Assembly (NCBI RefSeq): GCF_030013595.1
Contig: NZ_CP122768.1
Source of the DNA: Escherichia coli
GTDB lineage: Bacteria; Pseudomonadota; Gammaproteobacteria; Enterobacterales; Enterobacteriaceae
Reading direction: 5' to 3' (one strand)
Length of the DNA stretch: 64,000 bases
Under the pieces are notes generated by a model. That model saw only the letters and a program-made list of their open reading frames with translations, was not told where the DNA came from and did not search any database. Positions 4,344-47,903 of the stretch are shown here, piece by piece (position 1 is the first letter of the stretch; each line of letters starts with the position of its first letter). A program made the translations under genes and the position numbers.

Positions 4344-5153
4344 TTATAGGTCTCTAAATATCTCAGAAAGATTGAATTTTTTATAGTCCATCTCTTGAAT
4401 ATTTCCATTTGATATCAATCGATTCATCTCTTCAACAAAATAATTTATATCATCACATTTGTTATTATCCGGAAGATCTGAGTAATTATAATTCCACCAC
4501 TTTATTCTCAACAATTCATCAATAACATTTGAATCAAATCTAAATCTGATTATTTTTGCTGGAACTCCTGCAACTATGGCATATGGGGGCACATCTTTGG
4601 TAACAACGGAATTGGCAGCAATAACAGCACCATCACCTATTGCGATGCCACCTTTCAGTACAACATCATTTCCTATCCAGACATCATTTCCTATAATCGG
4701 ATTTTCAGGTTTGGTAATGAATGGTTTCAATGTCCAGCTACGTTCAAACTCACTCTTAGCAAACTTATCAAATTCACCGTTATAAGTCATCATGTGAGTA
4801 GTAAAACGATTCAAAGGATGATTTCCACCCATTATTTTTACATTTGATGCAATACTACAAAATCGACCTATATGTATATTCCCTGTAAAATGACAGGTCG
4901 GGAATGAAAAAGCGCCGACACTGGAGAAATTTTTTACAGGCATTGTTGAATATTCTTCAGCAATAACATTATCTTCAATTGTTATCTTGTCACCTTTTGA
5001 GAAAAGAAATAAATTTCTTTCTTTATACGACTTCTTCCCCTTATGATTTAAAAAGATTTTATTATCCATACAAAACTCAAAGTGTTTTTTCGCCCACCTG
5101 AAGGTAAGGGTTTTATTTTTATCTTCCGTGAATTTATACAATTGAACTTTCAT
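4344..5153 (-). CDS. hexapeptide-repeat xenobiotic acetyltransferase, Vat/XAT-like (streptogramin A / chloramphenicol acetyltransferase family)
   Basis: 269 aa; C-terminal left-handed beta-helix repeats IGNDVWIGNDVVLKGGIAIGDGAVIAANSVVTKDVPPYAIVAGVPAKIIRFRF followed by LLRIKWWNYN, closely resembling the Vat family signature; very AT-rich codon usage unlike flanking core genes. Confidence 0.7.
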   Translation of the reverse strand: MKVQLYKFTEDKNKTLTFRWAKKHFEFCMDNKIFLNHKGKKSYKERNLFLFSKGDKITIEDNVIAEEYSTMPVKNFSSVGAFSFPTCHFTGNIHIGRFCSIASNVKIMGGNHPLNRFTTHMMTYNGEFDKFAKSEFERSWTLKPFITKPENPIIGNDVWIGNDVVLKGGIAIGDGAVIAANSVVTKDVPPYAIVAGVPAKIIRFRFDSNVIDELLRIKWWNYNYSDLPDNNKCDDINYFVEEMNRLISNGNIQEMDYKKFNLSEIFRDL

Positions 5154-5375
5154 TGTTAATACTTCTACTTATAAATTATTAGGTTAATAACGATACTCTA
5201 AAGCCTTATGCGAATCAACTATGACAGGATGAAAAATCACCAACATACATTTAGATCATAATAACTGCCTAATTTTTCCGCTAGTTATTAATGTAATCAT
5301 TCTGATACTTAATCACCATTACACTCAGAACCTAAAACGATAGTGGCCGCCCTATAACAGCCACTAACATTTAAC

Positions 5376-6800
5376 TTAATGTTTAACCATGACGTGGCGG
5401 ACGACGGTGTAATCCTCCAGCCCATAAAGTGACATATCCTTGCCGTAACCAGAAAGTTTCTGCCCACCGTGCGGCATTTCACTTACCAGCATGAAATGGG
5501 TATTGACCCAGGTACAACCATATTGTAGCCGTGCGCTGACGCGATGCGCCCTGCCCACATCTTTCGTCCATACCGAAGATGCAAGTCCGTACTGGCTGTC
5601 ATTCGCCCAGTTCACCATCTGTTCTTCGTTGTCGAAGAGCGTAACACTCACTACTGGACCAAATACCTCTTTTTGCACGATGGCATCATCCTGTAATGCG
5701 CCAGCCAGCAGCGTCGGCGCATAGTAATAGCCATTACCCTTGCGCTTTTCACCGCCAGTGATCACTTTGATGTGCCCTGTCGCTTTCGCCTCTTCTACCG
5801 CCTTGCTGACGCGTTCGAGATGCGCCAGCGAACTTAAAGGTCCAAGCTCCGTAGAGTCGTCATCCGGCGCACCCGATTTTAACGTTGCCACTGCAGCACC
5901 AAGTTTTTCCACCAGCGTATCGTAAATGCCTTTTTGCGCATAGATCCGACAAGCCGCTGTACAATCCTGTCCGGCATTGTAATAGCCAAAAGTACGTACA
6001 CCTTCGACCACCGCTTCAATATCCGCATCATCAAAAACTATCACTGGCGCTTTGCCACCAAGTTCCATATGAGTACGCTTTATGGACGGCGCGGTATGGC
6101 TGATGATGTGTTCCCCAGTGGCGATAGAGCCCGTCAGCGACACCATCCGCACTTTGGGATGACCGGTCAGCGGATCGCCCACCGTTTTGCCTCTGCCAAA
6201 CAGTACATTAATCACGCCAGCCGGGAAGATATCTTTCGCCAGCTCTGCCAACTTCAACGCTGTCAGCGGGGTAATTTCTGATGGTTTAAGCACTACGCAG
6301 TTCCCTGCCGCCAGCGCCGGAGCCAGTTTCCACGCAGCCATCATCAGCGGATAATTCCACGGTGCGATAGAAGCCACGACCCCCAACGGATCGCGACGGA
6401 TCATCGAAGTATGACCTTCAAGATATTCACCTGCCGCCAGACCATTCAGGCAGCGAGCTGCTCCGGCGAAAAAGCGAAAGACATCGACAATCGCCGGGAT
6501 TTCATCATTGAACGCACTATGCAGCGGTTTGCCACAGTTACGGGACTCCAGTTCGGCTAAAACCTGACCATTTTCTTCGATAACATCAGCCAGTTTCAGC
6601 AGGCATTCCGCACGCGCTTTCGGCGTGGTTTGCCCCCATTCGGCAAATGCTGCATCTGCCGCGCGAACAGCAGCATCCACCTGTTCTGCGGATGCCTCGG
6701 CAATCTCTAGTAAAACGTCCCCCGTTGCCGGATTATAGACAGGCTGTTTTTCCCCTTCGCCGCTAACCAGTTCTCCGTTAATCAGTAACTTATGTTGCAT
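5376..6800 (-). CDS. patD: gamma-aminobutyraldehyde dehydrogenase PatD (YdcW)
   Basis: 474 aa aldehyde dehydrogenase; N-terminus [27 protein letters not shown] matches recalled PatD. Confidence 0.9.
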
Positions 6801-10968: not shown

Positions 10969-12375
10969 TTACAGCCGTTCTTGAATAAGTTTGCCTAATT
11001 GTTTAACCGCCTGTTCTTCACGTTCTCCCCACTGCCACGCGGTATTAAAACGGAAAAAACGTGACCAGTTTTCACCGGTAGAAAACATTTTACCCGGCGC
11101 AATACTGATATGATGCGCCAGTGCCGCCAGGCTTAATTCGCCCGCATCTAACGGTTCGGGAAGCTCCAGCCAGAGAAAATAACCGCTGTCATTATGATGA
11201 ATTTTCACTTCCGCAGGCAGATAACGCAGCAGTGCTTGCCAGGCACGTTGTTTACGTTCCGCAAGCTGGCGACGCAGGCGACGAAGATGGGCGTCGTATC
11301 GGCGCGTGGAAAGGTAATCCACCAGAGCAAGCTGCATCGGTGAGCTGGTGGAAAGCGTACTCATCAACTGCAAGCGTTGAATTTTACGTGCATGTTTTCC
11401 GGCGGCGACCCAACCAATACGAAAACCAGGCACCAGACATTTCGAAAACGAAGAGCAATGCAAAACACCATCGTGGTGATCCCACGCTTTCGCAGGCAGC
11501 GGTTTTTCCCGTCCAAAATAAAGTTCGCTGTAAACGTCATCTTCAATCAGCGTTACGTTGTACTGATTGAGCAACGCTACCAGCCGCGCTTTTTTCTGCG
11601 GCGTTAAGGTAAATCCGAGTGGATTCTGGCTATTAGTCATCAGCCAGCACGCTTTCACTGGATACTCCTGCAACGCCAGTTCCAGCGCCTTGAGATCAAT
11701 CCCTTCTTTAACGTCCGTCGCCACCGATAACGCCTTCAGCCGTAACCGCTCCAGCGCCTGCAACGCGCCGTAGAAACAAGGATTCTCTACTATCACCCAA
11801 TCGCCCGGTTCAGTGACCGCTTGTAAACTGAGGTTTAATGCCTCTAACGCCCCGGCGGTAATGACAATTTCATCAGGAGAAATAGTGATGCCCTGTAAGG
11901 CATAGCGACGAGCAATAGCCTGACGCAGTTCTGCGTTTCCTGGCGGTAAGTTTTCAATCACGCTCATCGCCGTGGCGGTTTTGCTTACCTGCGCCAGCGA
12001 GCGGTTTAGTTGTTGGAGGGGGAAAAGTCGCGGGTCGGGAAAGGCCGAGGCAAACGGAACTACCGACGGATCGCGACTGGCCTGCAACATATCAAAAATA
12101 TAGGTGTTGATATCGACTGCTTCATCTCGAGTGACAGGAATGACTGGCGCTTTCGGCATTTTTATTGCCTGTGGCGCAACGTAATAACCCGACTGCGGTC
12201 GAGCGATAATATGTCCCTGACTTTCGAGCAACTGATAGGCATGGCTGACAGTCATAAAGCTCATGCCAGAAAGCGCCACCTGGTCACGCAACGAAGGCAA
12301 ACGATCGCCAGGTTGCCAGATACCCGACGCAATCTGCTCGCGTAATTGTTCTGCAAGCTGCTGGTATTTTTTCAT
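10969..12375 (-). CDS. ydcR: MocR/GntR-family regulator with fused aminotransferase domain YdcR
   Basis: 468 aa; N-terminal wHTH plus PLP-aminotransferase-like domain. Confidence 0.85.
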   Translation of the reverse strand: MKKYQQLAEQLREQIASGIWQPGDRLPSLRDQVALSGMSFMTVSHAYQLLESQGHIIARPQSGYYVAPQAIKMPKAPVIPVTRDEAVDINTYIFDMLQASRDPSVVPFASAFPDPRLFPLQQLNRSLAQVSKTATAMSVIENLPPGNAELRQAIARRYALQGITISPDEIVITAGALEALNLSLQAVTEPGDWVIVENPCFYGALQALERLRLKALSVATDVKEGIDLKALELALQEYPVKACWLMTNSQNPLGFTLTPQKKARLVALLNQYNVTLIEDDVYSELYFGREKPLPAKAWDHHDGVLHCSSFSKCLVPGFRIGWVAAGKHARKIQRLQLMSTLSTSSPMQLALVDYLSTRRYDAHLRRLRRQLAERKQRAWQALLRYLPAEVKIHHNDSGYFLWLELPEPLDAGELSLAALAHHISIAPGKMFSTGENWSRFFRFNTAWQWGEREEQAVKQLGKLIQERL

Positions 12376-12453
12376 TATCGAATCGTAATTATGTGCAGAT
12401 GATTCGGCAGTCTATATCAGTTGTTAAAAATGACAACTTTTCGTTAACTGTAA

Positions 12454-12567
<114 letters not shown>

Positions 12568-12609
12568 CCCTAATATAATGCCCCCACAATAACACGAGGG
12601 GGTACAACA

Positions 12610-12996
12610 ATGTTCAATATCATGATTCGTAAATTTGGCGAGATGACTTTCGAGAAAGCTGGTGTTGCTCGTACCGAAGAAGAAGCAATGGCCTTAGTTC
12701 TGGTAGCACTGAGATCATCACCTGAGATTATCGACGCTGAATATGTAGCTGCTGAGGGTGAGATTAAAGAGATTAAAGCGGTGGCTAAGGAATTAGGTGT
12801 TAAAGGTTTCCGTAAGCTGAGATTGAATCGTGAGACTTATGTAATTGGACAGCAAGGACAATACCTAGATGAGAATACCGTGATTGTTCTACTGAATAAG
12901 ATTACCCGCTACGGTTGGAAGATTGAGCAATATAAAACGTGTTTCGAATTATACGAAAAAGGTTTGCTGGATACTCTGACCATCGTTCGCGCTTAA
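12610..12996 (+). CDS. hypothetical protein (prophage attL-proximal)
   Basis: 128 aa ORF with RBS GAGGGGG upstream; no recognisable family. Confidence 0.5.
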   Translation: MFNIMIRKFGEMTFEKAGVARTEEEAMALVLVALRSSPEIIDAEYVAAEGEIKEIKAVAKELGVKGFRKLRLNRETYVIGQQGQYLDENTVIVLLNKITRYGWKIEQYKTCFELYEKGLLDTLTIVRA

Positions 12997-13304
12997 TTAA
13001 TTTCTAATTTGGTGGGTGTAATTCCCACCGCTTTTTAAACTGGAGAATCAAACATGTTAGCTTTTATCTCATTCGTGGGAGGTAGTCTCACAACTATGAT
13101 TAGTCTTTCTTATCTTGTCGTTAGTATGGGGTGAGCAATGAAACAATTTCATGATGGCATTTCATCTAAGACATTCAAGAAAGAATATAGCGGATTGTGT
13201 ATTAACTGGATTGATTTGATTGGTGCGGTTGTGTTTGGTCTGGTAATTAGCATCAATTTTTAACGATATAAATATATCGTAATTCATTCAAAGAGGATTC
13301 AATT

Positions 13305-13646
13305 ATGAAAAAGACTATCTACGCAATTATTGTTTCTGTGTGTGTTGGTGGCATCGGTGGATTTGTTTGTGGGTATGACTATTCCGATACTCAACATCAA
13401 GAGACTATCCGGTCAAATAAGGCCGAGATTAAGGATCTGAATCAGGAGATTAGCCAGTTAGAAAATGCTCTCTCACTCAAAGACAGTGAATATAGCGAGG
13501 TTTATGCAGATAAACAAAAATATTGGAAAGAGAAAGATAATCTCGTTGTTTACGGGATGAAATTGTGTAAGAGCATGAAGGACGAGCGCAGTTGTTTAAT
13601 GGAACTTGCCCTTAAAGGTAACGTGACCATCGACTTCAAAGACTAA
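13305..13646 (+). CDS. membrane-anchored coiled-coil protein (moron-like)
   Basis: 113 aa; N-terminal hydrophobic anchor IYAIIVSVCVGGIGGFVCG then coiled-coil; RBS AAGAGGATTC. Confidence 0.5.
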   Translation: MKKTIYAIIVSVCVGGIGGFVCGYDYSDTQHQETIRSNKAEIKDLNQEISQLENALSLKDSEYSEVYADKQKYWKEKDNLVVYGMKLCKSMKDERSCLMELALKGNVTIDFKD

Positions 13647-13675
13647 TTAATTCAAATAACAAAGAGGATTCTATT

Positions 13676-13921
13676 ATGAAAAAGATTATCGCTGGTATCG
13701 TTCTTGCTCTGGGTTTGGTTGGTGCTGCAAATGCCGAACAATATGTACAGGGTGATAGTGTCAAGCGTGCTGCCGTTGCACCTTCTTTAAATCAACTGTG
13801 TACTGAATTAGCACAGGTTGCCGGAGTTGGTGACGATGACGACTTTATTACTGCGTGTGTGTGGAGTCATATCGAGGATATTAATAAACGTGATGCAAAA
13901 CTAACTGGAAAGAAATATTAA
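13676..13921 (+). CDS. small secreted protein (moron-like)
   Basis: 81 aa; Sec signal peptide MKKIIAGIVLALGLVGAANA with AxA cleavage site; two Cys in mature part; RBS nearly identical to that of the preceding gene. Confidence 0.55.
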   Translation: MKKIIAGIVLALGLVGAANAEQYVQGDSVKRAAVAPSLNQLCTELAQVAGVGDDDDFITACVWSHIEDINKRDAKLTGKKY

Positions 13922-13971: not shown

Positions 13972-15666
13972 TTGTTTGGAAATGGTATGAAAACTAAACT
14001 ATATTCGTATATTCGCTTCTCGTCTATGCGTCAGAATGATGGTTCGAGTTATGAACGGCAAATCAGGATGGCGAGAGAGGTTGCGGCAAAGTATGACCTT
14101 GAACTGGTAAATGATTATCAGGATCTGGGTGTATCTGCGTTTAAGGGTGCTAACTCTAAAACAGGGGCGCTATCTCGTTTCCTTGATGCAATTGGTAGAT
14201 CCGTTCCTGTTGGTAGCTGGCTATTCATTGAAAACTTGGACCGCTTATCCCGTGCCGATATTGTCAGTGCGCAGGAGTTATTCCTTTCAATCATCCGTAG
14301 GGGAATAACCATTGTTACTGGCATGGATAACAAGATCTACTCGCTGGATACTGTTACCGCTAATCCGATGGACCTGATGTTCTCCATCCTTCTATTCATC
14401 CGTGGTAATGAGGAAAGTCAGACTAAGCGCAATCGTACTAACTCAAGCGCATTGATTAAGATTAAAGCTCATCAAGAAAATCCCCAGAATCCGGCAGTGG
14501 CAATCGAGGAAGTTGGAAAGAATATGTGGTGGACTGATACCACATCTGGTTATGTGCTTCCTCATCCGGTCTTCTTCCCTATTGTTCAGGAAGTTGTGGA
14601 ATTACGCAGGAATGGACGGTCAACCGCCGAGATACTGGATCACCTTAACGCGACATACACACCACCACCAGCCGCAAGTCACAAGAGGCATTCAAACTGG
14701 TCACGGGCAATGATTGAAAGGTTGTTCCATACCCGCGCTTTGATTGGTATCAAGGAAATCTCTGTAGATGGCGTTAAGTATGAGTTAAAGGATTATTATC
14801 CTCGTGTGCTAGATGACGCTGAGTTTTATCACCTTAAGAAAAGCATTGGTGTTAGAGCATGTAACTATGGAGACAAGGAAGAAGTTAAACCGATCCCCCT
14901 GCTTAGTGGTGTTAATCTGCTGAAATGTGATCATTGCGGTTCCGCTATGGTTAAGGTGAAAGGAACAAACAGACGGCCTAACCAATATCGTTATTCATGC
15001 GATGCAATGCGCTCTAGTCGTATTGAATGTGTGCATACAAACTGGAGTTTTCGCGGCGACCAATTAGAGAAAGCTGTATTGCAATTGCTGGCTGATAAAA
15101 TCTGGATTGCTGAAGATAAGGCTAATCCGGTTCCGGCTTTGAAAGTACAGATTGATGAAATATCACGCAAGATTGATAACCTGATTGCCCTTTCTGCTAT
15201 GACAGGAGCAACGAAGGAGCTAGCCGATCAGATTACTACCCTCAATAGCGAGCGTGAAACACTCTACAATCAGATCAAGATGGCAGAAGAGGAAATGTAT
15301 TCTGTGGACTCTCAAGGCTGGGAGAAGCTCGCAGAATTTGATTTAGAAGATGTTTACAACGAGGATCGCATTAAGGTCCGGTTTAAGATTAAGCAAGCTC
15401 TAAAACGGATCGGGTGTAGCAGGATTGACAAGTACAAAAACTTGTTTGTACTGGAATACATCGATGGCAAGACCCAGAGAGTTGTAATAGAAAATTCAAG
15501 AGGACCGAGGAAAGGCCGGATCTTCGTTGATTTGAAGACTATCAATGATAGGCAGATTCTGGAGAGTAACGGGCTTGTTCTGCATCCATGTTTAGACATG
15601 CTGACAGATAAGAACTGGAAACCAGAAGAGGAAATACCAGGTCCATTACAGGAATTTGGAATTTAA
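13972..15666 (+). CDS. large serine recombinase (putative prophage integrase)
   Basis: 564 aa; resolvase-type catalytic motif YIRFSSMRQ at N-terminus, Cys-rich zinc-ribbon segment CDHCGS...YRYSCDAMRSSRIEC and coiled-coil, typical of large serine integrases. Confidence 0.8.
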   Translation: MFGNGMKTKLYSYIRFSSMRQNDGSSYERQIRMAREVAAKYDLELVNDYQDLGVSAFKGANSKTGALSRFLDAIGRSVPVGSWLFIENLDRLSRADIVSAQELFLSIIRRGITIVTGMDNKIYSLDTVTANPMDLMFSILLFIRGNEESQTKRNRTNSSALIKIKAHQENPQNPAVAIEEVGKNMWWTDTTSGYVLPHPVFFPIVQEVVELRRNGRSTAEILDHLNATYTPPPAASHKRHSNWSRAMIERLFHTRALIGIKEISVDGVKYELKDYYPRVLDDAEFYHLKKSIGVRACNYGDKEEVKPIPLLSGVNLLKCDHCGSAMVKVKGTNRRPNQYRYSCDAMRSSRIECVHTNWSFRGDQLEKAVLQLLADKIWIAEDKANPVPALKVQIDEISRKIDNLIALSAMTGATKELADQITTLNSERETLYNQIKMAEEEMYSVDSQGWEKLAEFDLEDVYNEDRIKVRFKIKQALKRIGCSRIDKYKNLFVLEYIDGKTQRVVIENSRGPRKGRIFVDLKTINDRQILESNGLVLHPCLDMLTDKNWKPEEEIPGPLQEFGI

Positions 15667-15942
15667 GCGGCCTAAATCGACGTATAACGAGCTAAAACAG
15701 TTAAGGGGTACAGATGTACCCCTTTTTAATTTAATTGCGTTAGGCAGCGTAAGCAAGTTTCATAGTAGTTTCCTCTAAAATAATAAGTTCACTACTATTT
15801 ATCAGAGAAAATTGTCTTACTATTGCATTCTCTATCTGGATGTGGGTATAGGCGGGATTGAATACGGCAAAACTGAAACATTCCACTACTGCAATAAATC
15901 ACTAAACAATATAAAGAATATTGCAAGTGTGGAGTGGAACTA

Positions 15943-16254
15943 ATGCAAGATATTAAAATTCATTTTCAAGATTACAGTTTCGTTAAGGTTGATTGCTCTC
16001 CTTCTATCGGAATGGAATTAAGAGATTATTTCTCGTTTGAGGTTGAAGGGGCTAGGTTTAGCCCCCGTTACAAGTATTCTGGCTGGGATGGACGAATAAG
16101 ACTGTTTACGCATGAAAACACCCTACCAATTGGACTATTAAAAACGTTGGGTGTCTTCGTTAAAAATATGGGCTATTCAGTCTGGATTGACCCCAGATTG
16201 CTTGAGAAGGAAGATGTAACCAAAGACGCGATTAATGAATGGATTGATTCCTTA
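15943..16254 (+). pseudogene. UvsW-like SF2 helicase, N-terminal fragment (interrupted by IS1)
   Basis: MQDIKIHFQDYSFVKVDC... runs in frame into the IS1 left end; the frame continues on the other side of IS1. Confidence 0.7.
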
Positions 16255-16309
16255 GGTGATGCTGCCAACTTACTGATTTAGTGTATGATGGTGTTTTTGA
16301 GGTGCTCCA

Positions 16310-16585
16310 GTGGCTTCTGTTTCTATCAGCTGTCCCTCCTGTTCAGCTACTGACGGGGTGGTGCGTAACGGCAAAAGCACCGCCGGACATCAGCGCTATC
16401 TCTGCTCTCACTGCCGTAAAACATGGCAACTACAGTTCACTTACGCCGCCTCTCAGCCCGGTACGCACCAGAAAATCATTGATATGGCCATGAATGGCGT
16501 CGGATGTCGCGCCAGTGCACGCATTATTGGCGTTGGCCTCAACACGATTTTCCGCCACTTAAAAAACTCAGGCCGCAGTCGGTAA
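16310..16585 (+). CDS. insA: IS1 InsA
   Basis: 91 aa [43 protein letters not shown]..., zinc finger plus HTH. Confidence 0.9.
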
Positions 16586-17007
16586 CCTCGCGCATACAAC
16601 CGGGCAGTGATGTGATTGTCTGCGCTGAAATGGACGAACAGTGGGGCTACGTCGGTGCTAAATCACGTCAGCGCTGGCTGTTTTACGCGTATGACAGGAT
16701 GCGGAGGACGGTTGTGGCGCACGTCTTCGGTGAACGCACTCTGGCCACACTGGAGCGTCTTCTGAGCCTGCTGTCGGCCTTTGAGGTCGTGGTATGGATG
16801 ACGGATGGCTGGCCGCTGTATGAATCACGCCTGAAGGGAAAGCTGCACGTTATCAGCAAGCGTTATACTCAGCGCATTGAGCGGCATAACCTGAATCTGA
16901 GACAACATCTGGCAAGGCTGGGACGGAAGTCACTGTCGTTCTCAAAATCGGTGGAGCTGCATGACAAGGTCATCGGGCATTATCTGAACATAAAACACTA
17001 TCAGTAA
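16504..17007 (+). CDS. insB: IS1 InsB reading frame (expressed as InsAB' by -1 frameshift)
   Basis: 167 aa frame overlapping insA 3' end; DDE transposase core. Confidence 0.85.
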
Positions 17008-17022
17008 GTTGGAGTCATTACC

Positions 17023-18210
17023 GATTCCTTAGAAGTGTATTCCGGTAGCAATAAAATCAATCCTTATTGGTATCAAAGGGAGGCAGTCTTTCAGGGTATC
17101 CACAATCGCCGTAGAATGCTGGTTCTTCCTACCAGTGCCGGAAAGTCATTGATTGCTTGTATGCTGTCTCGTTGGTACTTAGAGAACTACACCGGAAAAG
17201 TGTTAATCATTGTTCCGACTACATCGCTAGTGGTTCAAATGAGGGATGATTTCATCGATTATAGGCTATTCCCTTATGAAGCAATTCATACAATGATGAG
17301 TGGTAGCGGGAAACATCCGGGAGACAGGTTAATCACGGTTAGTACCTGGCAATCAGCTTGCAAGATGCCTCCTGAATGGTTCCGACAATATGGAATGTTG
17401 ATAGTTGATGAATCGCATAAGGCTAGTGCCAAAAATATTACCAATATCATCAATGGAATGAATCATTGCCAATTTAAGATCGGCATGACTGGTTCCCCGA
17501 AAGAATCAAAGTGCCATTTAATGCAGTATGTCGGGCTTTTCGGTGATATTTCTAAGATCGTGAGTATTGACCGCCTGATGGAAGAAGGGCAGGTGACAAA
17601 ACTGAAAATTAACTGTCTTTTCCTTCGTTATACAGATGAGGAATGTAGCGCGGTTAAGGGGCGAGAATATGCGGAAGAGATCAAGTATATTACGTCTAAC
17701 CCACGACGAAATAAGTTTGCTTGTAATTTGGCGCTAAAACTAGCTAAGAAGGGCGAAAACGTATTCCTGATGTTCCGCAATACTAAGCACGGAAAACTTA
17801 TGTATGATGCGTTACAGAAGGTACACGACAAGGTTTATTATATTGACGGTGGAGTTAAGACAGAAGAACGTGATGAATTTAAGAAAATGGCGGAGGGTGA
17901 CACCGGGATCATTTGCGTTGCATCCTATGGTGTGTTCTCTACTGGTGTTTCAATTAAGAATTTGCATCATGTTATTTTCGGTCATCCAGTGAAGGAATCA
18001 ACTATCGTTCGTCAGAGTATCGGTCGTGCATTGCGTAAACATGGTTCTAAGGATATTGCAACGGTCTGGGATCTTATAGATCATCTGTGTATATTCGGTC
18101 GTAACGGAAAAGTCAAGCATAAAAATTATGCGGTAAAACATGCACTTGAGAGAATCCGCTATTATCTAACCGACAAGTTCAGCTATGCAACTAAAACAAT
18201 TGCTATATAA
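17023..18210 (+). pseudogene. UvsW-like SF2 helicase, C-terminal fragment
   Basis: Walker A LVLPTSAGKSL, DExH box IVDESHKA, helicase C-terminal motifs VASYGVFSTGVSIKNLHHVIFG and GRALRKHGSKDIATVWDL; in frame with the N-fragment across the IS1 target duplication. Confidence 0.7.
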
Positions 18211-39427: not shown

Positions 39428-41332
39428 TTAGAACGATGTTACCCAGCTACGGCCTCTATTTGGGCGTCTGACGATGTTTTGACGTTGTGGTCGTGTGATT
39501 GGCTTAGTTTCTTCGATTTGCTCGTCAGATTGCGATTTAGGAGCTTCTACAGGTTCTTCTGGTTCACGGTTCAAACTATCTTTGATGGCTTCGAGTTTTT
39601 CCCATGACATTTTATTGAGTACATGACGAGAAGCAGCATAGGAATAAGCCAGGCAGTCCAACGCTTCGTTTCGTGTTTGTCCAACTTTTACCCAACGTGT
39701 GGTATTACCCTGCCGTTTCAACTGTTCAGAAAGCAATTGCTCGCAATAGTCATCAGGAACGTCACCAATCTGGAAGACAGTGTGAGGATCGCCATCTCTC
39801 AAGTTCCGGTTAATCATTTCACGGATCATCGTTTTAAGGTTGTTTACGCCCAGAATTTTAAGGGTAAAACCACCCGTTCTTGTGTCTTTTACCGGAAGGA
39901 TTGGTGCATCAACATTGCTTGCGCCTTTAATGGCGGTTAGATTTTGCCACCGACTACAGAATCGATAGATCACGTTTGTAGCTCGTCCGTTCGATGAGTC
40001 CACGAAAGCAGATAACATCGGGATTCGTTCACCGGATCGGGTATAGAATTTAGCTTTCAGGAAGTTGTAAAGCTGGTTATATGCTGGTGATTCGTGGCGT
40101 TCGCAGTTCACATCATAGAATGATCGGTGATCAACTACGCATAGCCCTTTACGAGAAATACCCAGCAAGGTAGATTCCAGACGGTCTTTTTGCTGGTCAA
40201 CTCCACCTACCAGAGCCAGTACATCATCAGGAATATTGTCTAGGCTAATATCAGTTTTCAGCGTTTCTAATTCGTCGGCTGTGCGGTCTTCGTTAAGATC
40301 ATCGAAGGTTTCACCGAGGACTGTATTGTAGAACGTTGCCAGGGACATATTCGCGTAGCTATCAGCAAAGTCCACCACACACGCACGGATAGAACTAAAC
40401 GGAGACATAAGGCGGTTAGCATGAAAACCGATTACTTCCGCGTTTGGTTCGGTGGCGACCCATTCTCCCTGTCCAACAGCACGTAGGCGATCACCCTCGG
40501 TCCAATCGGTTTCACATTCAGGGCAACGGTAAACGGCTGTATCTGGGTTGGGTAATGATTTACCGTTAATCGTATGCCAATCGAAATGTACGTTACTCCA
40601 TTCCATTACGTGCTTGTGTCCGCAATGCTGGCAAACGACATGATATTTTCTCTTATCCGAGAGTTCCCATTGTTGGTTAATCGCCCCATCACGAGCGGTT
40701 GGAGTGGAAGCAATTACGATCCTTGCATCTTCCCCGAAAGTGGTTGCGCGTTGTTCCGCTAGTTGGATCGGGTTCCCTTCGTCTGACTCATCAGCCGCAT
40801 CAACTTCATCAAGAATAATCAAAGGGAGTGTTTTACCGCGAAGATGTGACGGACTATTCAACGACATGAAATACATAAACGATCCGTTACGAAGCTGAAT
40901 AATCGATGAGTTGTTAACGGCATTGCGATCTGATTTGTCGGTGATCATCGCCTTTAATTCTGGTGTTGCCTCTAATACTGGCTTCACCTTACCAGCGATC
41001 CAAGAATTTAGTTCTCTAACGTTACTTTGCAACACCCCAATATTAGTAGGGTTACTCGCGATCCGATGGAAGATAATTCCGTTAAGAATCATGGTCTTAC
41101 CCAACTGTGCCGAACATTTAAACACAATTTTTCTACGGTCTTCGGTGATCGCGTCCATCATTCCACGTTGGAAGGGATGCAATTTAATTAGCGATCCGGC
41201 TTTAACACCATCGGTTGCAACTACATTAGCCTCTACCCATTCGCTAGGTTTCATCGTTTTAGGTGGGCGAATTGCCGCAGAGATATTTTTAAGAATCTTT
41301 TTTAATTTTGCCTTGTTCGAAATCAGTTTCAT
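39428..41332 (-). CDS. terminase large subunit (GpA-like)
   Basis: 634 aa; Walker A-like FKCSAQLGKTMILNG, acidic DE-rich nuclease region at C-terminus. Confidence 0.8.
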   Translation of the reverse strand: MKLISNKAKLKKILKNISAAIRPPKTMKPSEWVEANVVATDGVKAGSLIKLHPFQRGMMDAITEDRRKIVFKCSAQLGKTMILNGIIFHRIASNPTNIGVLQSNVRELNSWIAGKVKPVLEATPELKAMITDKSDRNAVNNSSIIQLRNGSFMYFMSLNSPSHLRGKTLPLIILDEVDAADESDEGNPIQLAEQRATTFGEDARIVIASTPTARDGAINQQWELSDKRKYHVVCQHCGHKHVMEWSNVHFDWHTINGKSLPNPDTAVYRCPECETDWTEGDRLRAVGQGEWVATEPNAEVIGFHANRLMSPFSSIRACVVDFADSYANMSLATFYNTVLGETFDDLNEDRTADELETLKTDISLDNIPDDVLALVGGVDQQKDRLESTLLGISRKGLCVVDHRSFYDVNCERHESPAYNQLYNFLKAKFYTRSGERIPMLSAFVDSSNGRATNVIYRFCSRWQNLTAIKGASNVDAPILPVKDTRTGGFTLKILGVNNLKTMIREMINRNLRDGDPHTVFQIGDVPDDYCEQLLSEQLKRQGNTTRWVKVGQTRNEALDCLAYSYAASRHVLNKMSWEKLEAIKDSLNREPEEPVEAPKSQSDEQIEETKPITRPQRQNIVRRPNRGRSWVTSF

Positions 41333-41498
41333 GTAATTACCCTCATTACGAAATATGAAGGTATTTATTAAATTGTTGATATTTTGATAAATATGGGTAT
41401 TAAGGCAGAGTTCTTTATGTCGGTTGACGATGGAGAACTTTTTCCGATAAAATGTAAGTCCTCTAAATAAAGGTGAACATTCACTTTAATTTGGAGAA

Positions 41499-41732
41499 AT
41501 GACTATGACTACTAAAGCTACTCGCGGTCGCCCTGCCCGTTATACTCGTGAACAGATGGCTGATATTGCCTACGCTTACTATACAGCGGATCGCGGGAAG
41601 GAAGCGAAAGAACAGATTCTTAGTGAACATGGGATTTCAGTAGCCCAATTCTATAAGAATATGAAGAAGTTAGACATTAAATTCTATGTTCAGATCGATG
41701 ACGGTCAGATCGTAGAAGCAACAGGTTTTTGA
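41499..41732 (+). CDS. small DNA-binding protein (paralog of 45446..45628)
   Basis: 77 aa; RGRPARYTRE ... pattern shared with MARPVKFTRE... of the paralog; own terminator downstream. Confidence 0.5.
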   Translation: MTMTTKATRGRPARYTREQMADIAYAYYTADRGKEAKEQILSEHGISVAQFYKNMKKLDIKFYVQIDDGQIVEATGF

Positions 41733-41740
41733 TTCTCTTT

Positions 41741-41765
41741 GCCACTCTTCGGAGTGGCTTTTTTG
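41741..41765 (+). terminator. rho-independent terminator
   Basis: GCCACTC-TTCG-GAGTGGC followed by TTTTTTG. Confidence 0.6.
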
Positions 41766-41844
41766 TATCTAAGTTATTGATTTTCTCGAACTTCACAATT
41801 TGTGGGAGTCGGGAAACATCCACAATTTGTGGGAGTTGGATAGT

Positions 41845-41872
41845 AAAAAGCCCCACCATTACGGCAGGGCTT
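41845..41872 (-). terminator. rho-independent terminator (copy 3)
   Basis: same AGCCCTGCC...GGTGGGGCT-TTTT element as at 29366 and 35168. Confidence 0.45.
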
Positions 41873-41876
41873 CTAA

Positions 41877-42428
41877 TCAGATTCCGAAGATGTCACATAG
41901 GTCGGCTGTGTGGCGTTCTTGTTTTGAATAGTAAATCCGTTCAGCTTCATATAACGTGATAGAATCATCATTAACGACGGTTTCAAACTCCCCTTCTATT
42001 ACCCTTTCTGTGTGCGCTTTACTGCGTAATTCGGCCTCTTCCATGCGATATAAGCCAATACAGATACTACCATATACACCATATTTTTTCTCGTCGAGAT
42101 GGCGACGACCTTTGCGTTGTTCGAACGGAAGATCGTAAGCGGTTATCTTTTTGCGGCGAACTCGATCATATCCACTCTCTTTGGCATCAATCATCATACT
42201 AATCAACATCCCACATTTAACAAGGGATTCAAGGCACTGACGAATAGAATTAGTTCTTGATTGTTTTAATTCTGGGTTAGGATCGTAATATGGATTATCT
42301 ATCCATGATTCATGAATAAGGAAATGTACGTCATCAGCCGTTAAAGGCCAACCACCAACACTTTCAACATCGGTCTTAGTACAATCAAACAGATCCAGAA
42401 TGAATTTCTTTTTGTGCGTCATTTTCAT
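41877..42428 (-). CDS. hypothetical protein
   Basis: 183 aa ORF. Confidence 0.45.
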   Translation of the reverse strand: MKMTHKKKFILDLFDCTKTDVESVGGWPLTADDVHFLIHESWIDNPYYDPNPELKQSRTNSIRQCLESLVKCGMLISMMIDAKESGYDRVRRKKITAYDLPFEQRKGRRHLDEKKYGVYGSICIGLYRMEEAELRSKAHTERVIEGEFETVVNDDSITLYEAERIYYSKQERHTADLCDIFGI

Positions 42429-42523
42429 AATGTTCTATCCTCAAAATACTTAAAAAGTACCATGCCGATTTTCGCGGCATGGTCAAAAAATCACCATACA
42501 CCCAATGGGCGTTTGGTTAAAAA

Positions 42524-43363
42524 TTAGATACCAAAGACAGCAAGTGATCCGGCGTTCTTACGAATCAATGCGGCGGTATTATTAACGATTGCACGAGCAT
42601 TGTTAGGCTGCGGTAATTTCAAAGTTGCTATCGTCTCTTCCTCAATCAAGCCCAATTCAACCAGCACTGGTAAACAGTCAGTTGTGAACTCAAGCTGACC
42701 ATGTGCTGATTGTCGGGCATACATGTAAGCAGGAGGAAGAACATCATAGCCACAAGGCTTACCAGAAGCATCCAGACGGCGCTCAATGTGTTTAGCCTCA
42801 CACAATCCCTTAAGAATACGTTGTACCTTCGTAGAGCCTCGTTTTTCGCCCAATAAGCGGGTTAAGCTGTGCCCGTCAATGGCACGGCGAACATGAAGAT
42901 CAATTAATTGTTCTTTTTCTTCCGCTAAAGTCAGAGCCTTACGAATCCAATCAACTTCGGTCATCTTGCTTGCGTCTGGGAAAGCGTTATTCTTTAATTC
43001 TTCATTTTCTTTCTTCAAACGCTGCCATTCATCAACCAGCATTGCGGTATAAACCGGATCGGTCTGTGCGATAACAATGTAGCTATCACGTTCAGTCAGA
43101 AGATAAACTTCAATTGGTTTGCCTTTACGGCCTAAACGGTCAGTTTTTGACCAAAACGCCACTGGCGGTTTGGTTACAATTTGAGCTTCAACCAGACGAT
43201 CAACCGTTCTCATAATATCGGTGTGACGGTTTTCACGCCCCATTAGTTCAGCAATACGCCAGGTAGAAATTGATAATTCTTTCTCTACAGAGTCATTTGC
43301 AGCAGTCAGGTCAACAGAAGAAGCAGTTTTAACAGCAGTATTCATAGTAGTAACAGTATTCAT
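42524..43363 (-). CDS. Rha-family phage regulatory protein (antirepressor-like)
   Basis: 279 aa; N-terminal segment STWRIAELMGRENRHTDIMRTVDRL fits the Rha domain pattern (recalled signature, unverified). Confidence 0.45.
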   Translation of the reverse strand: MNTVTTMNTAVKTASSVDLTAANDSVEKELSISTWRIAELMGRENRHTDIMRTVDRLVEAQIVTKPPVAFWSKTDRLGRKGKPIEVYLLTERDSYIVIAQTDPVYTAMLVDEWQRLKKENEELKNNAFPDASKMTEVDWIRKALTLAEEKEQLIDLHVRRAIDGHSLTRLLGEKRGSTKVQRILKGLCEAKHIERRLDASGKPCGYDVLPPAYMYARQSAHGQLEFTTDCLPVLVELGLIEEETIATLKLPQPNNARAIVNNTAALIRKNAGSLAVFGI

Positions 43364-43451
43364 AGTAGTAATTCCCCTTTCGGTTTAGTGATATTGATCC
43401 TCCTAGTTCCGGCATCACCACCGGAACATTTTTATTTATGATAGAAATTTA

Positions 43452-43784
43452 TTACCAATCGATTTCTACTTGGTCTTCTTCATAATAAGGAATCGCATAT
43501 TCATAACGCCAATTTTCGATGATTTCACGTTCTTCATTAGTAAGAAGGTGATTGTTAACTGGAGTCGCATTGTGATTACCAGCTTCGAATTGCTCGCGAA
43601 CTTCCAGCATTGCATGAATACCAGTTAAGGACATCAGATCAAACGGAACATGCATACTACGGGAGATTGTTTCACGGGATACGCCCCAATCATTTTCTAC
43701 ATGGCTAGGGGTTACAGAAACGGTTTTGCCGGAGATTTTAACAGTCCAGTCATACAGGGATTTAGTGATGGTAAATTCTTTCAT
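43452..43784 (-). CDS. hypothetical protein
   Basis: 110 aa ORF. Confidence 0.45.
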   Translation of the reverse strand: MKEFTITKSLYDWTVKISGKTVSVTPSHVENDWGVSRETISRSMHVPFDLMSLTGIHAMLEVREQFEAGNHNATPVNNHLLTNEEREIIENWRYEYAIPYYEEDQVEIDW

Positions 43785-43905
43785 GTTACATCCTCTTTAC
43801 AAATCTAGGTCAAATAGGTTCAAAGTTGTCAAGTGCGATAATCATAAAAAAGTTTGAAGATATTGTCAAATACCACTTGACAAGACACCAAAGGGTTGAC
43901 CTAAC

Positions 43906-44094
43906 TTACAGCATATCTAAGCCTTCATCGTAACCGTAGAAGCCATTCTGAGAAGAGAAGCAGATTGGTGCGTAGTCGTCGTCATCTTCGTCTTGTTCAT
44001 CTTGTTCTGGGGCTTCCTGAGCGGTTTCTTTGCCGTAGTTAAACATGGCTTCATCCAGTTCATAGTGGAAATCCTCTAAAAGAAAGTGAATCAA
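43906..44094 (-). CDS. small acidic protein
   Basis: 62 aa with EQDEQDEDDDD tract; first gene after the control region on the minus strand. Confidence 0.35.
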   Translation of the reverse strand: MIHFLLEDFHYELDEAMFNYGKETAQEAPEQDEQDEDDDDYAPICFSSQNGFYGYDEGLDML

Positions 44095-44743
44095 TCTAAT
44101 ATTATTTATAAAGAGAAAATTCTTGTTATTATGAAAGGAGTGATCTGGTAGAGTCCAAAACTGGTCTGTACTTGAAAGGTGATTGGATTCAGTCGGGCAA
44201 AGCCCTCCTTCATGTTTTGATTAAATCATCATCAAAACGAAGAAGTATCTTTAGAATATAAGATCTTTCTTTTGGAGAAATAATAATCAGGAAGCAATTT
44301 GGCAACCGAAGGTTGCAATCCCGAAGGGATAACCAATACCTTTCTAGAAAGTGATTGTTACTCACTTCGTTCGTTTACTAGAATCAGTTATCATCTGGTA
44401 TTAAATCCCTTTCTAAGAAAATCCTTTCAAAAGTGATTCTCGATGCCACGCAGTGGCGTCGCAGACGTTTGGGAGTGAGCGAAGCGAGCGAGCAAACTAG
44501 TTAATTCCTTCTAAGACCATCTAGTATCATCTAGTTTAAATTAGTTGTTACTAGAAGCAATTGGTTGGCGCTTCGCGCAGTCGGGCTAAAGCCCTCCTAA
44601 TTATCTTTTTGGTTATTTGTTGTTTTTAGTTTTACACATGAGCGTAGCGAATGTGTTATATAATATCTATGCACGCCCAATCCCCCGCTTTTTCCCCTCA
44701 CTAAGTTAATGTTTTATAAAGAGTTTTTCTCACCAATCCTTTT

Positions 44744-44931
44744 CGGGGGCAAATTTCAGGGGCAAAAATTAGATTTTCAGGGGCAAAAATAGTGGGTTTC
44801 AGGGGCAAAAATGAGGGGCAAAATCACTGTTTCCCAGAATTTCAGGGGCAAAAATAGTGGGTTTCAGGGGCAAAAATGGGATGTGGAATCTAGGGGATTT
44901 TGGTTCAGGGGCAAAATTCAGGGGCAATTTT
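44744..44931. repeat. iteron-like direct-repeat array, about 9 copies of TTCAGGGGCAAAAAT at mostly 21-22 bp spacing
   Basis: copies at 44757, 44777, 44799, 44842, 44864, 44905, 44918 plus degenerate copies at 44745 and 44813; two 22-bp units AGTGGGTTTCAGGGGCAAAAAT are identical. Confidence 0.65.
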
Positions 44932-44968
44932 CATAGTGTAGGGCTAGTGTAGGTTTGAAAATCCTTTG

Positions 44969-44997
44969 TTGACACTGTGTAGGATCGGTGGTATACT
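44969..44997 (+). promoter_or_regulatory. consensus sigma70 promoter (TTGACA-17 bp-TATACT)
   Basis: perfect -35 hexamer, 17-bp spacer, near-consensus -10; points toward the plus-strand right-arm genes. Confidence 0.5.
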
Positions 44998-45445
44998 TGA
45001 AAATTCGAGATAAATATGTTATAATATTTGTATTGAAAGTGAAAATTTACCGATTTTCCTTCCTATTGTTATCACCGTGTTAAATTGTTATATGTCTGTG
45101 AAGATTTGGATCTGAGAGAAAATCTTGTAACAAATCTTTACAATTCATAGCTCAATTAATGCTCACCGCTTTAGCAAAAAGTGCTATGCCTTTTTCTAAA
45201 TTGATTGAATATACATCAATTTGGTTAAATCGTGTTCTTCGCTTTAGCAATTCGTGCTGTGGTTTAACACATTTAACACGTCTGATAACATCTGAATAAC
45301 ATTTTAACATATCTCTGTTATAAATACATATATAAGAGATAAATGTGAGGGGTTGAAAAATAAAATACAATCCCATATAAATAATAGTGAGCGGTTAACG
45401 CTCTTTTTTAAGAAATCATTAATCCACATTGTAGGAGGATTCGAG

Positions 45446-45628
45446 ATGGCACGACCTGTTAAGTTCACTCGCGAAATCATCTTAGAAATGGCTAAACGCT
45501 ACTTTGAGTTAACGCCGGGTGTGAGAATTGAAGAGTGGTTTAAAAATGAGGGCATCGATAAATCAACCTTTCATAAACTGCTAAAACGATATGACATTAA
45601 AGTGAAGATTGAAGCTACCGTTTGGTAA
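45446..45628 (+). CDS. small DNA-binding protein (paralog of 41499..41732)
   Basis: ORF 45353..45628 trimmed to the ATG with TAGGAGG RBS (MARPVKFTREIIL...); 60 aa. Confidence 0.5.
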   Translation: MARPVKFTREIILEMAKRYFELTPGVRIEEWFKNEGIDKSTFHKLLKRYDIKVKIEATVW

Positions 45629-45742
45629 TCAACTTTGACTGAGAATTATATGATGGCTTTAAAAAAGAAAAAGCCTCCTTTGCTGCAACAAGGGAGGCTT
45701 GAAATGAACAATTAAAACTAACTTTCCATAGGAGTATTTATA

Positions 45743-46684
45743 ATGTTATTTTCCGCTAACTTTTTCACTAACGAAGTAACCAACGCTAAAGCAGTTATCA
45801 AATTTGGCACCGAAGCAAACAAGAAGATTCAGCCGAAAGTTGTTGCTCATGTTTCCTTTGCGCAGCAGAAATCCGCTTTCGCTGGCTTTAAAGCACATCG
45901 TGAAGCACTGATCGCGGCTGGCTTTGGTGTTGACGGTAAACTGCCTAACGGCATTCGTAAAGCAATCGACCGCGTTAAACCAGTTAAAGACGTTGCAGTA
46001 GACCACATCGTTACTTTTACCGTTAAGAACTCTTCTGAACTGTTCCACCTGGTTATTGCTGGTGATACTGCTATCGTTTCCGCTCCTAACATGGATTTTC
46101 AGGATACCGCTGATTGCCAGATCACCTTCGGTCGTCGTAAAGAAGTTACCGGAAAAGCTAAACTGAACTTCACTAAATCCGGCAATCCTTACTTTGCTGT
46201 ATTCTTTAACAGCCACGCTACCGAAAAAGAAGTTGTAGAACTGGTTGCTTATGAAGGTGAAGAGAAAGAACGTATTGAATCTTGCGAAGCATTTCTGGAA
46301 CTGGAAGCACAGGTGAATGCTGTTTCTCCGGTTGTTGAAGATCGCTTTGCTGCACTGGAAGCACAGATCGCAGAACTGAAAGCTGCACTGGAAGAAAAAG
46401 ACCAGATTATCGAAGCACAGAAAGCTGAGATTGAAGAACTGAAAGCTAAAGAAGTTGCTCCGGTGGCAGTAGTTGAAAACGCGGCTGATGAGGCCGCAAA
46501 TGATGAAGTAGAAGTGAAAATCGATGTGATGCGTGATCCGATGGCTGCACTGCAATTACTTCGTTCTTTTAAGGGCAAATCTCATTTTTCTAGTGATGTA
46601 GAAGATGAGGAAGAAGAACAGAAACGCAATGCTGCAATGCTTCATGATGAAATGTACGGTACTAACTTTTCTTACTGCCAATAA
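45743..46684 (+). CDS. hypothetical protein with central coiled-coil and acidic C-terminus (moron-like)
   Basis: 313 aa; AGGAG RBS; codon usage (CTG, CGT, GGT, AAA, GAA, AAC, TTC) resembles highly expressed E. coli genes and differs from the rest of the prophage. Confidence 0.6.
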   Translation: MLFSANFFTNEVTNAKAVIKFGTEANKKIQPKVVAHVSFAQQKSAFAGFKAHREALIAAGFGVDGKLPNGIRKAIDRVKPVKDVAVDHIVTFTVKNSSELFHLVIAGDTAIVSAPNMDFQDTADCQITFGRRKEVTGKAKLNFTKSGNPYFAVFFNSHATEKEVVELVAYEGEEKERIESCEAFLELEAQVNAVSPVVEDRFAALEAQIAELKAALEEKDQIIEAQKAEIEELKAKEVAPVAVVENAADEAANDEVEVKIDVMRDPMAALQLLRSFKGKSHFSSDVEDEEEEQKRNAAMLHDEMYGTNFSYCQ

Positions 46685-47345: not shown

Positions 47346-47903
47346 TTAAGACACATCAAATTCATCGTCTTCTTCTGGTTCTTGTTCTTCCGGTTCATCC
47401 ATTAATGGTAATTCTTCTTCCTCGTCTTCTCCCAAATCTGCATTTTCGAACAAGTCCCCTACTTCATTTAAACGACGCTCGATGATCTCCCTTAGCTTAT
47501 TCTTTAATGTTTTCTGGTCATTGGCAGATTCGAGAATTTCTAGGGCATCGATCGTACAAATCTGCAAAATAGTCTGCTTCACTTTCCCGCAATATTCCGC
47601 TAGTTGCTGTTCTACATAACCGACAGGAATCAGGAGGTTCATTTTTTCCTGATTCTCTCGTTCGGCTGCATCTGCCATTGCTCTTTCTCTGCGGAGACGT
47701 TCTTGATCAATCGCTTCTTTGATTGAAGTTTGTTTAAGTGGGTTAATTACGTTCTTTAGCACCCAATCGCAACCTTCCTTTGCCGGAACACGCCTCTTAT
47801 TGGTATTGTAAGGTAGTCCCCTTTCTAACCATCGCTTACCGCCACCATTCAATGTATAGCCATATAAACGGGAAATTTCTGTAAGGGTTAATTCTTCTTT
47901 CAT
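47346..47903 (-). CDS. wHTH DNA-binding protein, Nu1-like (terminase small subunit candidate or regulator)
   Basis: 185 aa; N-terminal LTEISRLYGYTLNGGGKRWLERGLPY resembles the recalled lambda Nu1 LADIFGASIRTIQNWQEQGMP...GGGKG region; acidic C-terminal tail. Confidence 0.4.
   Translation of the reverse strand: MKEELTLTEISRLYGYTLNGGGKRWLERGLPYNTNKRRVPAKEGCDWVLKNVINPLKQTSIKEAIDQERLRRERAMADAAERENQEKMNLLIPVGYVEQQLAEYCGKVKQTILQICTIDALEILESANDQKTLKNKLREIIERRLNEVGDLFENADLGEDEEEELPLMDEPEEQEPEEDDEFDVS

Follow-up and report, generated by a model that had tools for sequence, protein, structure and literature searches.

Paralogous mini-helix-turn-helix proteins P1 and P2 of an Escherichia coli prophage lineage: a narrow phage family predicted to bind DNA

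A prophage within a 64,000-nucleotide stretch of Escherichia coli DNA (contig NZ_CP122768.1, assembly GCF_030013595.1; hereafter the window) carries two short plus-strand genes, here named P1 and P2, which encode related proteins of 75 and 60 amino acids (aa). We propose that both are forms of a minimal DNA-binding domain restricted to phages, and that they act as small sequence-specific regulators or as architectural accessories of non-structural gene units, most likely those for replication and early functions, a reading to which we assign a probability of roughly 45%. The two genes and the terminator of the first are located as follows:

41505..41732, plus strand: P1, a 75-aa protein with a mini-helix-turn-helix (HTH), consisting of an RGRP arm, three helices and a beta hairpin; an alternative start at 41499 would give 77 aa
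41741..41764, plus strand: intrinsic terminator of P1, GCCACUCUUCGGAGUGGC followed by U6, with a 7-bp GC stem and a UUCG loop (-13 kcal/mol)
45446..45628, plus strand: P2, a 60-aa mini-HTH protein, first cistron of an iteron cassette

P1 and P2 are paralogs (32% identity and 57% positives over 56 aa, BLASTP E-value 2e-9), and an alignment of 26 sequences from both families keeps the residues P12, T16, E18, A24, G45, I46, F51, K53, and K61. P1 is intact in all 39 related loci and P2 in all 35 loci that have the region, with median ratios of nonsynonymous to synonymous substitution (dN/dS) of 0.14 and 0.09, respectively, indicating purifying selection on both genes. For P1 the second ATG, at 41505, is more likely to be the start codon, judged from its sequence context, because a GGAG motif lies 9 nt upstream of 41505 and only 3 nt upstream of 41499, and because the homologs are annotated as 75 aa. 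P2 has the ribosome-binding site AGGAGG (45433–45438), 7 nt before its ATG. The original prediction had picked out the pair as paralogs that run against the minus-strand late genes, one of them with a strong terminator, and this was borne out, as both are opposed to the minus-strand structural operon and the hairpin behind P1 is stable. It had also placed them on either side of a control region, which holds for P2 only: this gene abuts the right edge of a 1.35-kb intergenic region, whereas P1 is 2.2 kb away from that region on its left, separated from it by a leftward unit of four genes, and diverges from TerL, the gene for the large terminase.

Homologs of P1 and of P2 were found in Escherichia, Shigella, Salmonella, and Edwardsiella only, all of them annotated as ‘hypothetical’ and none as a structural or packaging protein. 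The P family ranges over one enterobacterial prophage lineage and one T4-like phage. Pfam, NCBIfam, and PHROG have no model for it, and scans with PHROGs, NCBIfam, and PADLOC gave no match. In Pfam, HTH_7 (PF02796) aligned to P1 with 16.3 bits (E 0.011), below its gathering threshold of 23.8, in an alignment that begins at the GRP arm (residues 10–53 on profile positions 1–40). HTH_Tnp_1 (PF01527) aligned to P2 with 18.0 bits (E 0.0033), below its threshold of 24.1, and matched 7 of the 26 family members, each time sub-threshold. A profile built from both families and run against 1.84e9 representative proteins recovered a handful of true small relatives; outside the family it reached only proteins with tandem HTH_23, HTH_28, HTH_Tnp_1, or HTH_7 repeats (E 3e-12 to 7e-4), which themselves score 1e-20 to 1e-55 on HTH_23, HTH_28, and HTH_Tnp_1. 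Because the family profile reaches these genuine transposase-type HTH repeat proteins, the domain belongs, by its sequence, to the homeodomain-like or transposase-resolvase-type HTH class. As in the homeodomain-like superfamily, a three-helix HTH follows a basic arm, and the sequence link to bona fide members is significant.

The AlphaFold2 (AF2) model, with a predicted local distance difference test (pLDDT) score of 81, comprises an N-terminal arm, helices at 17–29, 34–43, and 48–57, and a beta hairpin. Throughout the family the arm is basic, with the consensus (R)GRP/ARP-x-[KR]-[FY]-[TN]-x-E, and leads into the three-helix HTH, after which comes a short beta tail. Foldseek searches of PDB and BFVD gave no significant match, and a profile search of the PDB sequences gave none. 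DNA binding, as originally predicted, is the best prediction for P1 and P2 and a probable one, because the GRP/ARP arm and HTH are combined with the sub-threshold HTH_7 and HTH_Tnp_1 matches and with the profile links to HTH_23 and HTH_Tnp_1 proteins. The P1 arm contains the RGRP core of AT-hooks, which likewise resembles the arm of Hin in the minor groove.

In the C-terminal HTH of Hin and the serine resolvases (HTH_7) and in the HTH of IS3-type OrfA (HTH_Tnp_1), a GRP-type basic arm stands directly before a compact three-helix HTH, as it does in the P family. These two domains are its best Pfam matches, sub-threshold as such, while the profile matches to proteins built of them are significant. 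The third helix of the P family moreover resembles the transposase signature ‘S-T-[LF]-Y-[KR]’, and reads STATLYRW in the P1-like protein of L039, an Edwardsiella-type relative (relatives are denoted by L numbers). Unlike Hin and OrfA, the P-family proteins are free-standing at 60–75 aa, lack a catalytic domain, carry an extra beta strand or hairpin tail, and are restricted to the one phage lineage and the one T4-like phage.

A further family gene, dbl200, lies between TerL and P1 and encodes 200 aa with two tandem copies of the domain; it is intact in 38 of the 39 relatives, and a phage genome can hold up to four copies of the domain (P1, P2, and two in dbl200). The window has lost all but a remnant of dbl200 in a clean deletion with direct repeats ACGGG(T)ATTAAG at its ends. 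An 88-bp region separates TerL from the dbl200–P1 unit and contains back-to-back copies of a 9-mer, TNATAAATA. The minus-strand copy, TAATAAATA, lies 30 nt ahead of the TerL start, and the plus-strand copy, TGATAAATA, precedes the dbl200–P1 unit.

39428-41332, minus strand: TerL, gpA-type large terminase
41362..41393, no strand assigned: back-to-back TNATAAATA elements between TerL and P1
41384..41467, plus strand: dbl200 remnant (last 28 codons; the upstream region is also kept)

P1, as the second cistron of the dbl200–P1 unit, which faces the terminase and late operon across the 88-bp region, would probably act on the divergent promoter pair there. A promoter-like site at 41424–41453, upstream of P1, falls inside the dbl200 remnant and was not taken as a native promoter. 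In L039, the dbl, P1-like, P2, and g313-like genes (for g313 see below) form one rightward block leaving the control region. The palindromic repeats near P1 (CCACAATTTGTGGGAG), palindromes having originally been suggested as possible binding sites of the pair, occur as two copies between converging terminators within the insert that carries a 183-aa gene; they are confined to the window and absent from all 39 relatives that keep P1, which contradicts the suggestion.

P2 is part of a cassette with a fixed order: GC hairpins, an iteron array, a strong promoter, a leader with a terminator, P2, a hairpin, and a gene, always present downstream of P2, for a protein of 200–380 aa whose N-terminal domain varies and which also has a coiled coil and an acidic tail. 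In the window the elements are:

44440-44600: GC-hairpin cluster (in relatives: L002 10060-10250, L009 10420-10520, L041 4950-5100)
44742..44940, plus strand: iteron array, about 7 copies of TTCAGGGGCAAAA at 21–22 bp spacing, likely cognate to the type-A protein g313 and not to P2
44969..45025, plus strand: two overlapping strong sigma-70-type promoters toward P2 (TTGACA-17-TATACT and TTGAAA-17-TATAAT, 11/12 matches each)
45318..45326, plus strand: TTATAAATA element within the leader of P2, which every lineage conserves
45389..45409, plus strand: terminator-like hairpin with T-run, directly upstream of the P2 ribosome-binding site and found in every cassette type
45671..45700, plus strand: hairpin separating P2 from g313 (-19.5 kcal/mol), retained by every type
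45743..46684, plus strand: g313, 313 aa, with the domain layout just given; it shares a transcript with P2 and is the putative iteron-binding (origin) protein

The strong promoter facing P2 has a conserved counterpart in the relatives, and both hairpins that bracket P2 are conserved with compensatory changes. In several variants the rightward promoter has a palindrome, TTGACAnnTGTCAA, across its -35. The GC-rich hairpins upstream of the iterons are short, close with tetraloops (e.g., GCCACGCAGTGGC and GGCGCTTCGCGC), form clusters in every cassette type, and recall single-strand initiation signals. A conserved RNA structure of the leader, of the kind that would suggest P4-like RNA immunity, was unsupported (consensus energy -6.7 kcal/mol), and a minus-strand open reading frame (ORF) of 74 aa within the P2 leader is not taken to be a gene, being interrupted by stops or frameshifts in L001, L023, and L034.

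The iterons fall into types that correspond one-to-one with the downstream protein, in five pairs over the 35 prophage loci and a sixth pair in the T4-like phage:

Type A: TTCAGGGGCAAAA, window and relatives
Type B: TAGTGTAGGTTT, relatives
Type C: CGGGGA at 11-bp spacing, L021
Type D: ACTAGAAAA, L002 group
Type E: TTCRRATGCYAYTTT, L039
T4-like type: TAGCGATTAC, L041

P2 sits between these co-varying partners, and its alleles reassort freely among the pairs; the same P2 protein accompanies type A iterons in one locus and type B in another (L007 versus L016, L032 versus L034), and the putative recognition helix is unchanged across all types. Since the iteron type co-varies with the downstream protein while P2 alleles reassort, P2 does not appear to determine iteron specificity. 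The iteron-specific binder, and the likely origin-binding initiator, would instead be the g313-like protein. The cassette itself would be a replication-origin and initiator module of the phage; this we infer because the iterons are spaced at 21–22 bp, the phage has no other initiator, and helicase and single-strand-binding-protein (SSB)-tail-like genes are adjacent. No family could be assigned to g313, the homologs of which are all ‘hypothetical’.

The complete cassette is also present in L041, a 168-kb contig of a T4-like lytic phage (ERZ27275837 k141_13924), at 4900–6625, where hairpins, iterons, promoter, a P2-like gene, the inter-cistronic hairpin, and a g313-like gene are followed by a gene for an 80-aa coiled-coil protein. 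The P2 homolog is 64 aa long and shares the N-terminus MARPVKFTREIV. As an insert between T4-like genes 3 and 2, the cassette lies some 3 kb from where oriE is found in T4; it is portable and not tied to lysogeny. T4 oriE has iterons, whose role is still conjectural, with repEA and repEB (Kreuzer and Brister, 2010; PMC3016281). In T4 as in L041, the iteron array lies in the baseplate gene region, next to small early genes. RepEA (50 aa) and RepEB (45 aa), compared directly, are unrelated to P2.

Small Cop-type regulators are encoded upstream of plasmid initiators, as in pMV158 (CopG–RepB), pIP501 (CopR–RepR), R1 (CopB–RepA), and RSF1010 (the F repressor). These systems share with the P2 cassette the order of origin repeats, promoter, small DNA-binding protein, and initiator, as well as a leader with a terminator between promoter and genes and a small protein that does not set iteron specificity; every cassette has a small first cistron between the repeats and promoter and the putative initiator. 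By analogy, P2 would set the expression of the initiator or help to assemble the origin complex, without fixing iteron specificity. P2 differs from the Cop proteins in having a fold other than the CopG ribbon-helix-helix and no sequence relation to them, with repression by P2 being only putative, and the cassette differs from the plasmid systems in being phage-borne. Another parallel is phage Mu, in which Mor and C are paralogous small HTH activators (dimeric, 129–140 aa) acting in a cascade. Like P1 and P2, they are a pair of small DNA-binding paralogs in separate transcription units, one of them beside the late genes; unlike them, they have no sequence similarity to our pair, for which activation is only conjectural.

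Several observations weigh against our proposal. Homologs of the cassette were absent from all 72,556 plasmids searched, DnaA boxes are not enriched, and the AF2 model of g313 (pLDDT 51) was too poor for a fold search. An identical P2 protein occurs behind two different promoter and leader variants, and no operator could be assigned. The TNATAAATA elements are sparse in L039 and may be a mere promoter class unrelated to P1 and P2. In addition, P1 of the window may no longer function in its context, as its dbl200 partner is deleted and the prophage is otherwise damaged.

The prophage, of about 36 kb, is inserted beside a hicB-like gene. Its minus-strand structural genes comprise lysis, tail, capsid-protease, portal, and gpA-type terminase genes; further features are:

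roughly 12.4-48.3 kb: prophage, GC 0.42 versus 0.50 in the flanks
13972-15666: large serine recombinase of 564 aa, the prophage integrase
15934-18210: UvsW-like helicase gene, split by IS1 (insA/insB at 16310-17007)
41.3-47.9 kb: non-structural region of 6.5 kb
41780-42490: inserted gene for 183 aa, with its own terminators, found in none of the 39 relatives
43452-43784, minus strand: g110, a 110-aa protein with the HTH-like motif WGVSRETISR
43906-44094, minus strand: g154 remnant, a 62-aa ORF left by an internal deletion and frameshift of a 154–162 aa gene
47346-47903: Nu1-like small terminase (phrog_57, E 3e-11), at the far right end of the prophage

With at least three lesions (IS1 in the helicase gene and the deletions in dbl200 and g154), the prophage in the window is probably defective. 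E. coli ES2 (NZ_CM184352.1) carries an intact relative. Related prophages were detected in 63 of 5,426 complete E. coli genomes (about 1%). No close cultured phage was found when 50,697 phage records were searched at the nucleotide level and by tblastn with the region, P1, P2, and the T4-like cassette protein as queries; the closest terminase from a cultured phage is only 44% identical, and a literature search returned nothing on this prophage lineage. The 183-aa gene had no family match, Rfam gave no match in 41.3–48.5 kb, and PADLOC found no defence systems. The intact g154 protein has an acidic, SSB-tail-like motif at its end, DDDDYAPIxF. Between Rha and g154 the gene content varies, the slot holding either g110 or an unrelated 51-aa basic protein (L009 9353–9508). 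The Nu1-like small terminase gene adjoins attR, 6 kb from the TerL gene, with the early and replication region between them, an unusual layout that is kept across the lineage. Directly past the small terminase gene, L039 has an ORF of at least 569 aa with reverse-transcriptase and TIR domains (12065–13774), which is defence-like.

The original prediction had cast the pair as candidates for the missing repressor, or for Cro-like or excisionase-like functions. A maintenance repressor or Cro-like switch protein acting on early promoters would agree with small HTH proteins that are transcribed against the late genes and have terminators of their own, with P2 as the first gene downstream of the rightward promoter, and with the position of TTGACAnnTGTCAA over the -35 of that promoter in several variants; moreover, library scans recognised no CI-like repressor anywhere in the prophage. 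We nevertheless consider this role unlikely for P1 or P2. Pfam, NCBIfam, and PHROGs gave no Cro/CI match (HTH_3/XRE, Cro), four copies of the domain per genome would be atypical, and P2 is placed behind a terminator, some 400 nt from the promoter. Immunity repressors co-vary with their operators, whereas identical P2 proteins are combined with different promoter and leader variants. Because the whole cassette occurs in a lytic T4-like phage, a repressor or excisionase role of P2 is disfavoured further. An immunity or Cro-like function could instead fall to the HTH-like g110, whose slot in the leftward unit is variable. P1 and P2 may have a Cro-like autoregulatory role.

Another possibility is that P1, P2, and dbl200 are trans-acting recognition factors for the TNATAAATA elements, which lack a -35 partner and are found at nearly all intergenic units, the terminase operon among them. 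The prophage has eight fully intergenic copies (25732, 41362, 41385, 43433, 44103, 45318, 45735, and 47331; a further site is at 15796) and none in coding sequence, while 9-mers of the same composition are 46% intergenic. The elements point toward TerL, dbl200/P1, Rha, g154, P2, and g94, at 9–120 nt from the starts, and their positions are conserved in the diverged relatives L007, L009, L002, and L046. They could serve as promoters of one class, as a set of operators, or in both ways. Their sequence is identical to the core of the T4 late promoter, and no gp55-like factor is recognisable in this temperate phage. A link to the P family is hypothetical, and recognition by its members is distinctly unlikely. 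If true, a temperate phage would be using HTH proteins for promoter specificity or as a global switch, and one of them, P2, would travel on a mobile origin cassette between temperate and T4-like virulent phages.

It is very unlikely that P1 and P2 are DNA-recognition modules for packaging that mark cos in the manner of the HTH of small terminases. The N-terminal DNA-binding domains of some small terminases do resemble the GRP-x-K-[YF]-T-x-E arm with HTH, the HTH-repeat relatives of the family match Pfam Sf6_terminase, and dbl200 and P1 abut the TerL gene. P1 and P2 are, however, on the strand opposite to TerL, match no TerS family, and are too short, having no oligomerisation or TerL-binding region. 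The prophage has a separate Nu1-like small terminase, the P-family genes of L039 are not beside TerL, and P2 is embedded in the iteron cassette even in the T4-like phage, which has its own terminase.

An excisionase role, as recombination directionality factor (RDF) of the 564-aa serine recombinase, is highly improbable. Known RDFs are small and diverse, and none was recognised in this prophage with its large serine recombinase. The RDFs of serine integrases, however, generally work via protein contacts and not by HTH DNA binding. Family library scans gave no Xis, HTH_17, or AlpA signal for P1 or P2, and the two genes are unlinked to the recombinase gene. Identical P2 proteins occur in prophages at ycdX and beside hicB, the recombinases of which differ by 7%, mostly in the DNA-binding region, and P2 has its homolog in the lytic T4-like phage.

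That P2, which adjoins the iterons, or P1 binds the array as an origin-binding protein, as also suggested originally, is contradicted by the one-to-one pairing of iteron type and downstream protein in 35 of 35 prophage loci and the T4-like cassette, and by identical P2 proteins, with the same putative recognition helix, beside type A and type B arrays, and it is extremely improbable.

P1 and P2 thus constitute a new, narrow, and previously unannotated phage family within a well-known kind of protein, which is hereby named and delimited. They are taken off the list of iteron or palindrome binders, and the case for a repressor or an excisionase is weakened. The reassortment of P2 between iteron and protein pairs is a natural experiment that points to the likely origin-binding protein, and the TNATAAATA elements offer a testable handle on transcription control in an uncharacterised phage lineage. 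If the cassette is an origin module, its distribution would exemplify the transfer of replication origins, as units, between very different phages.

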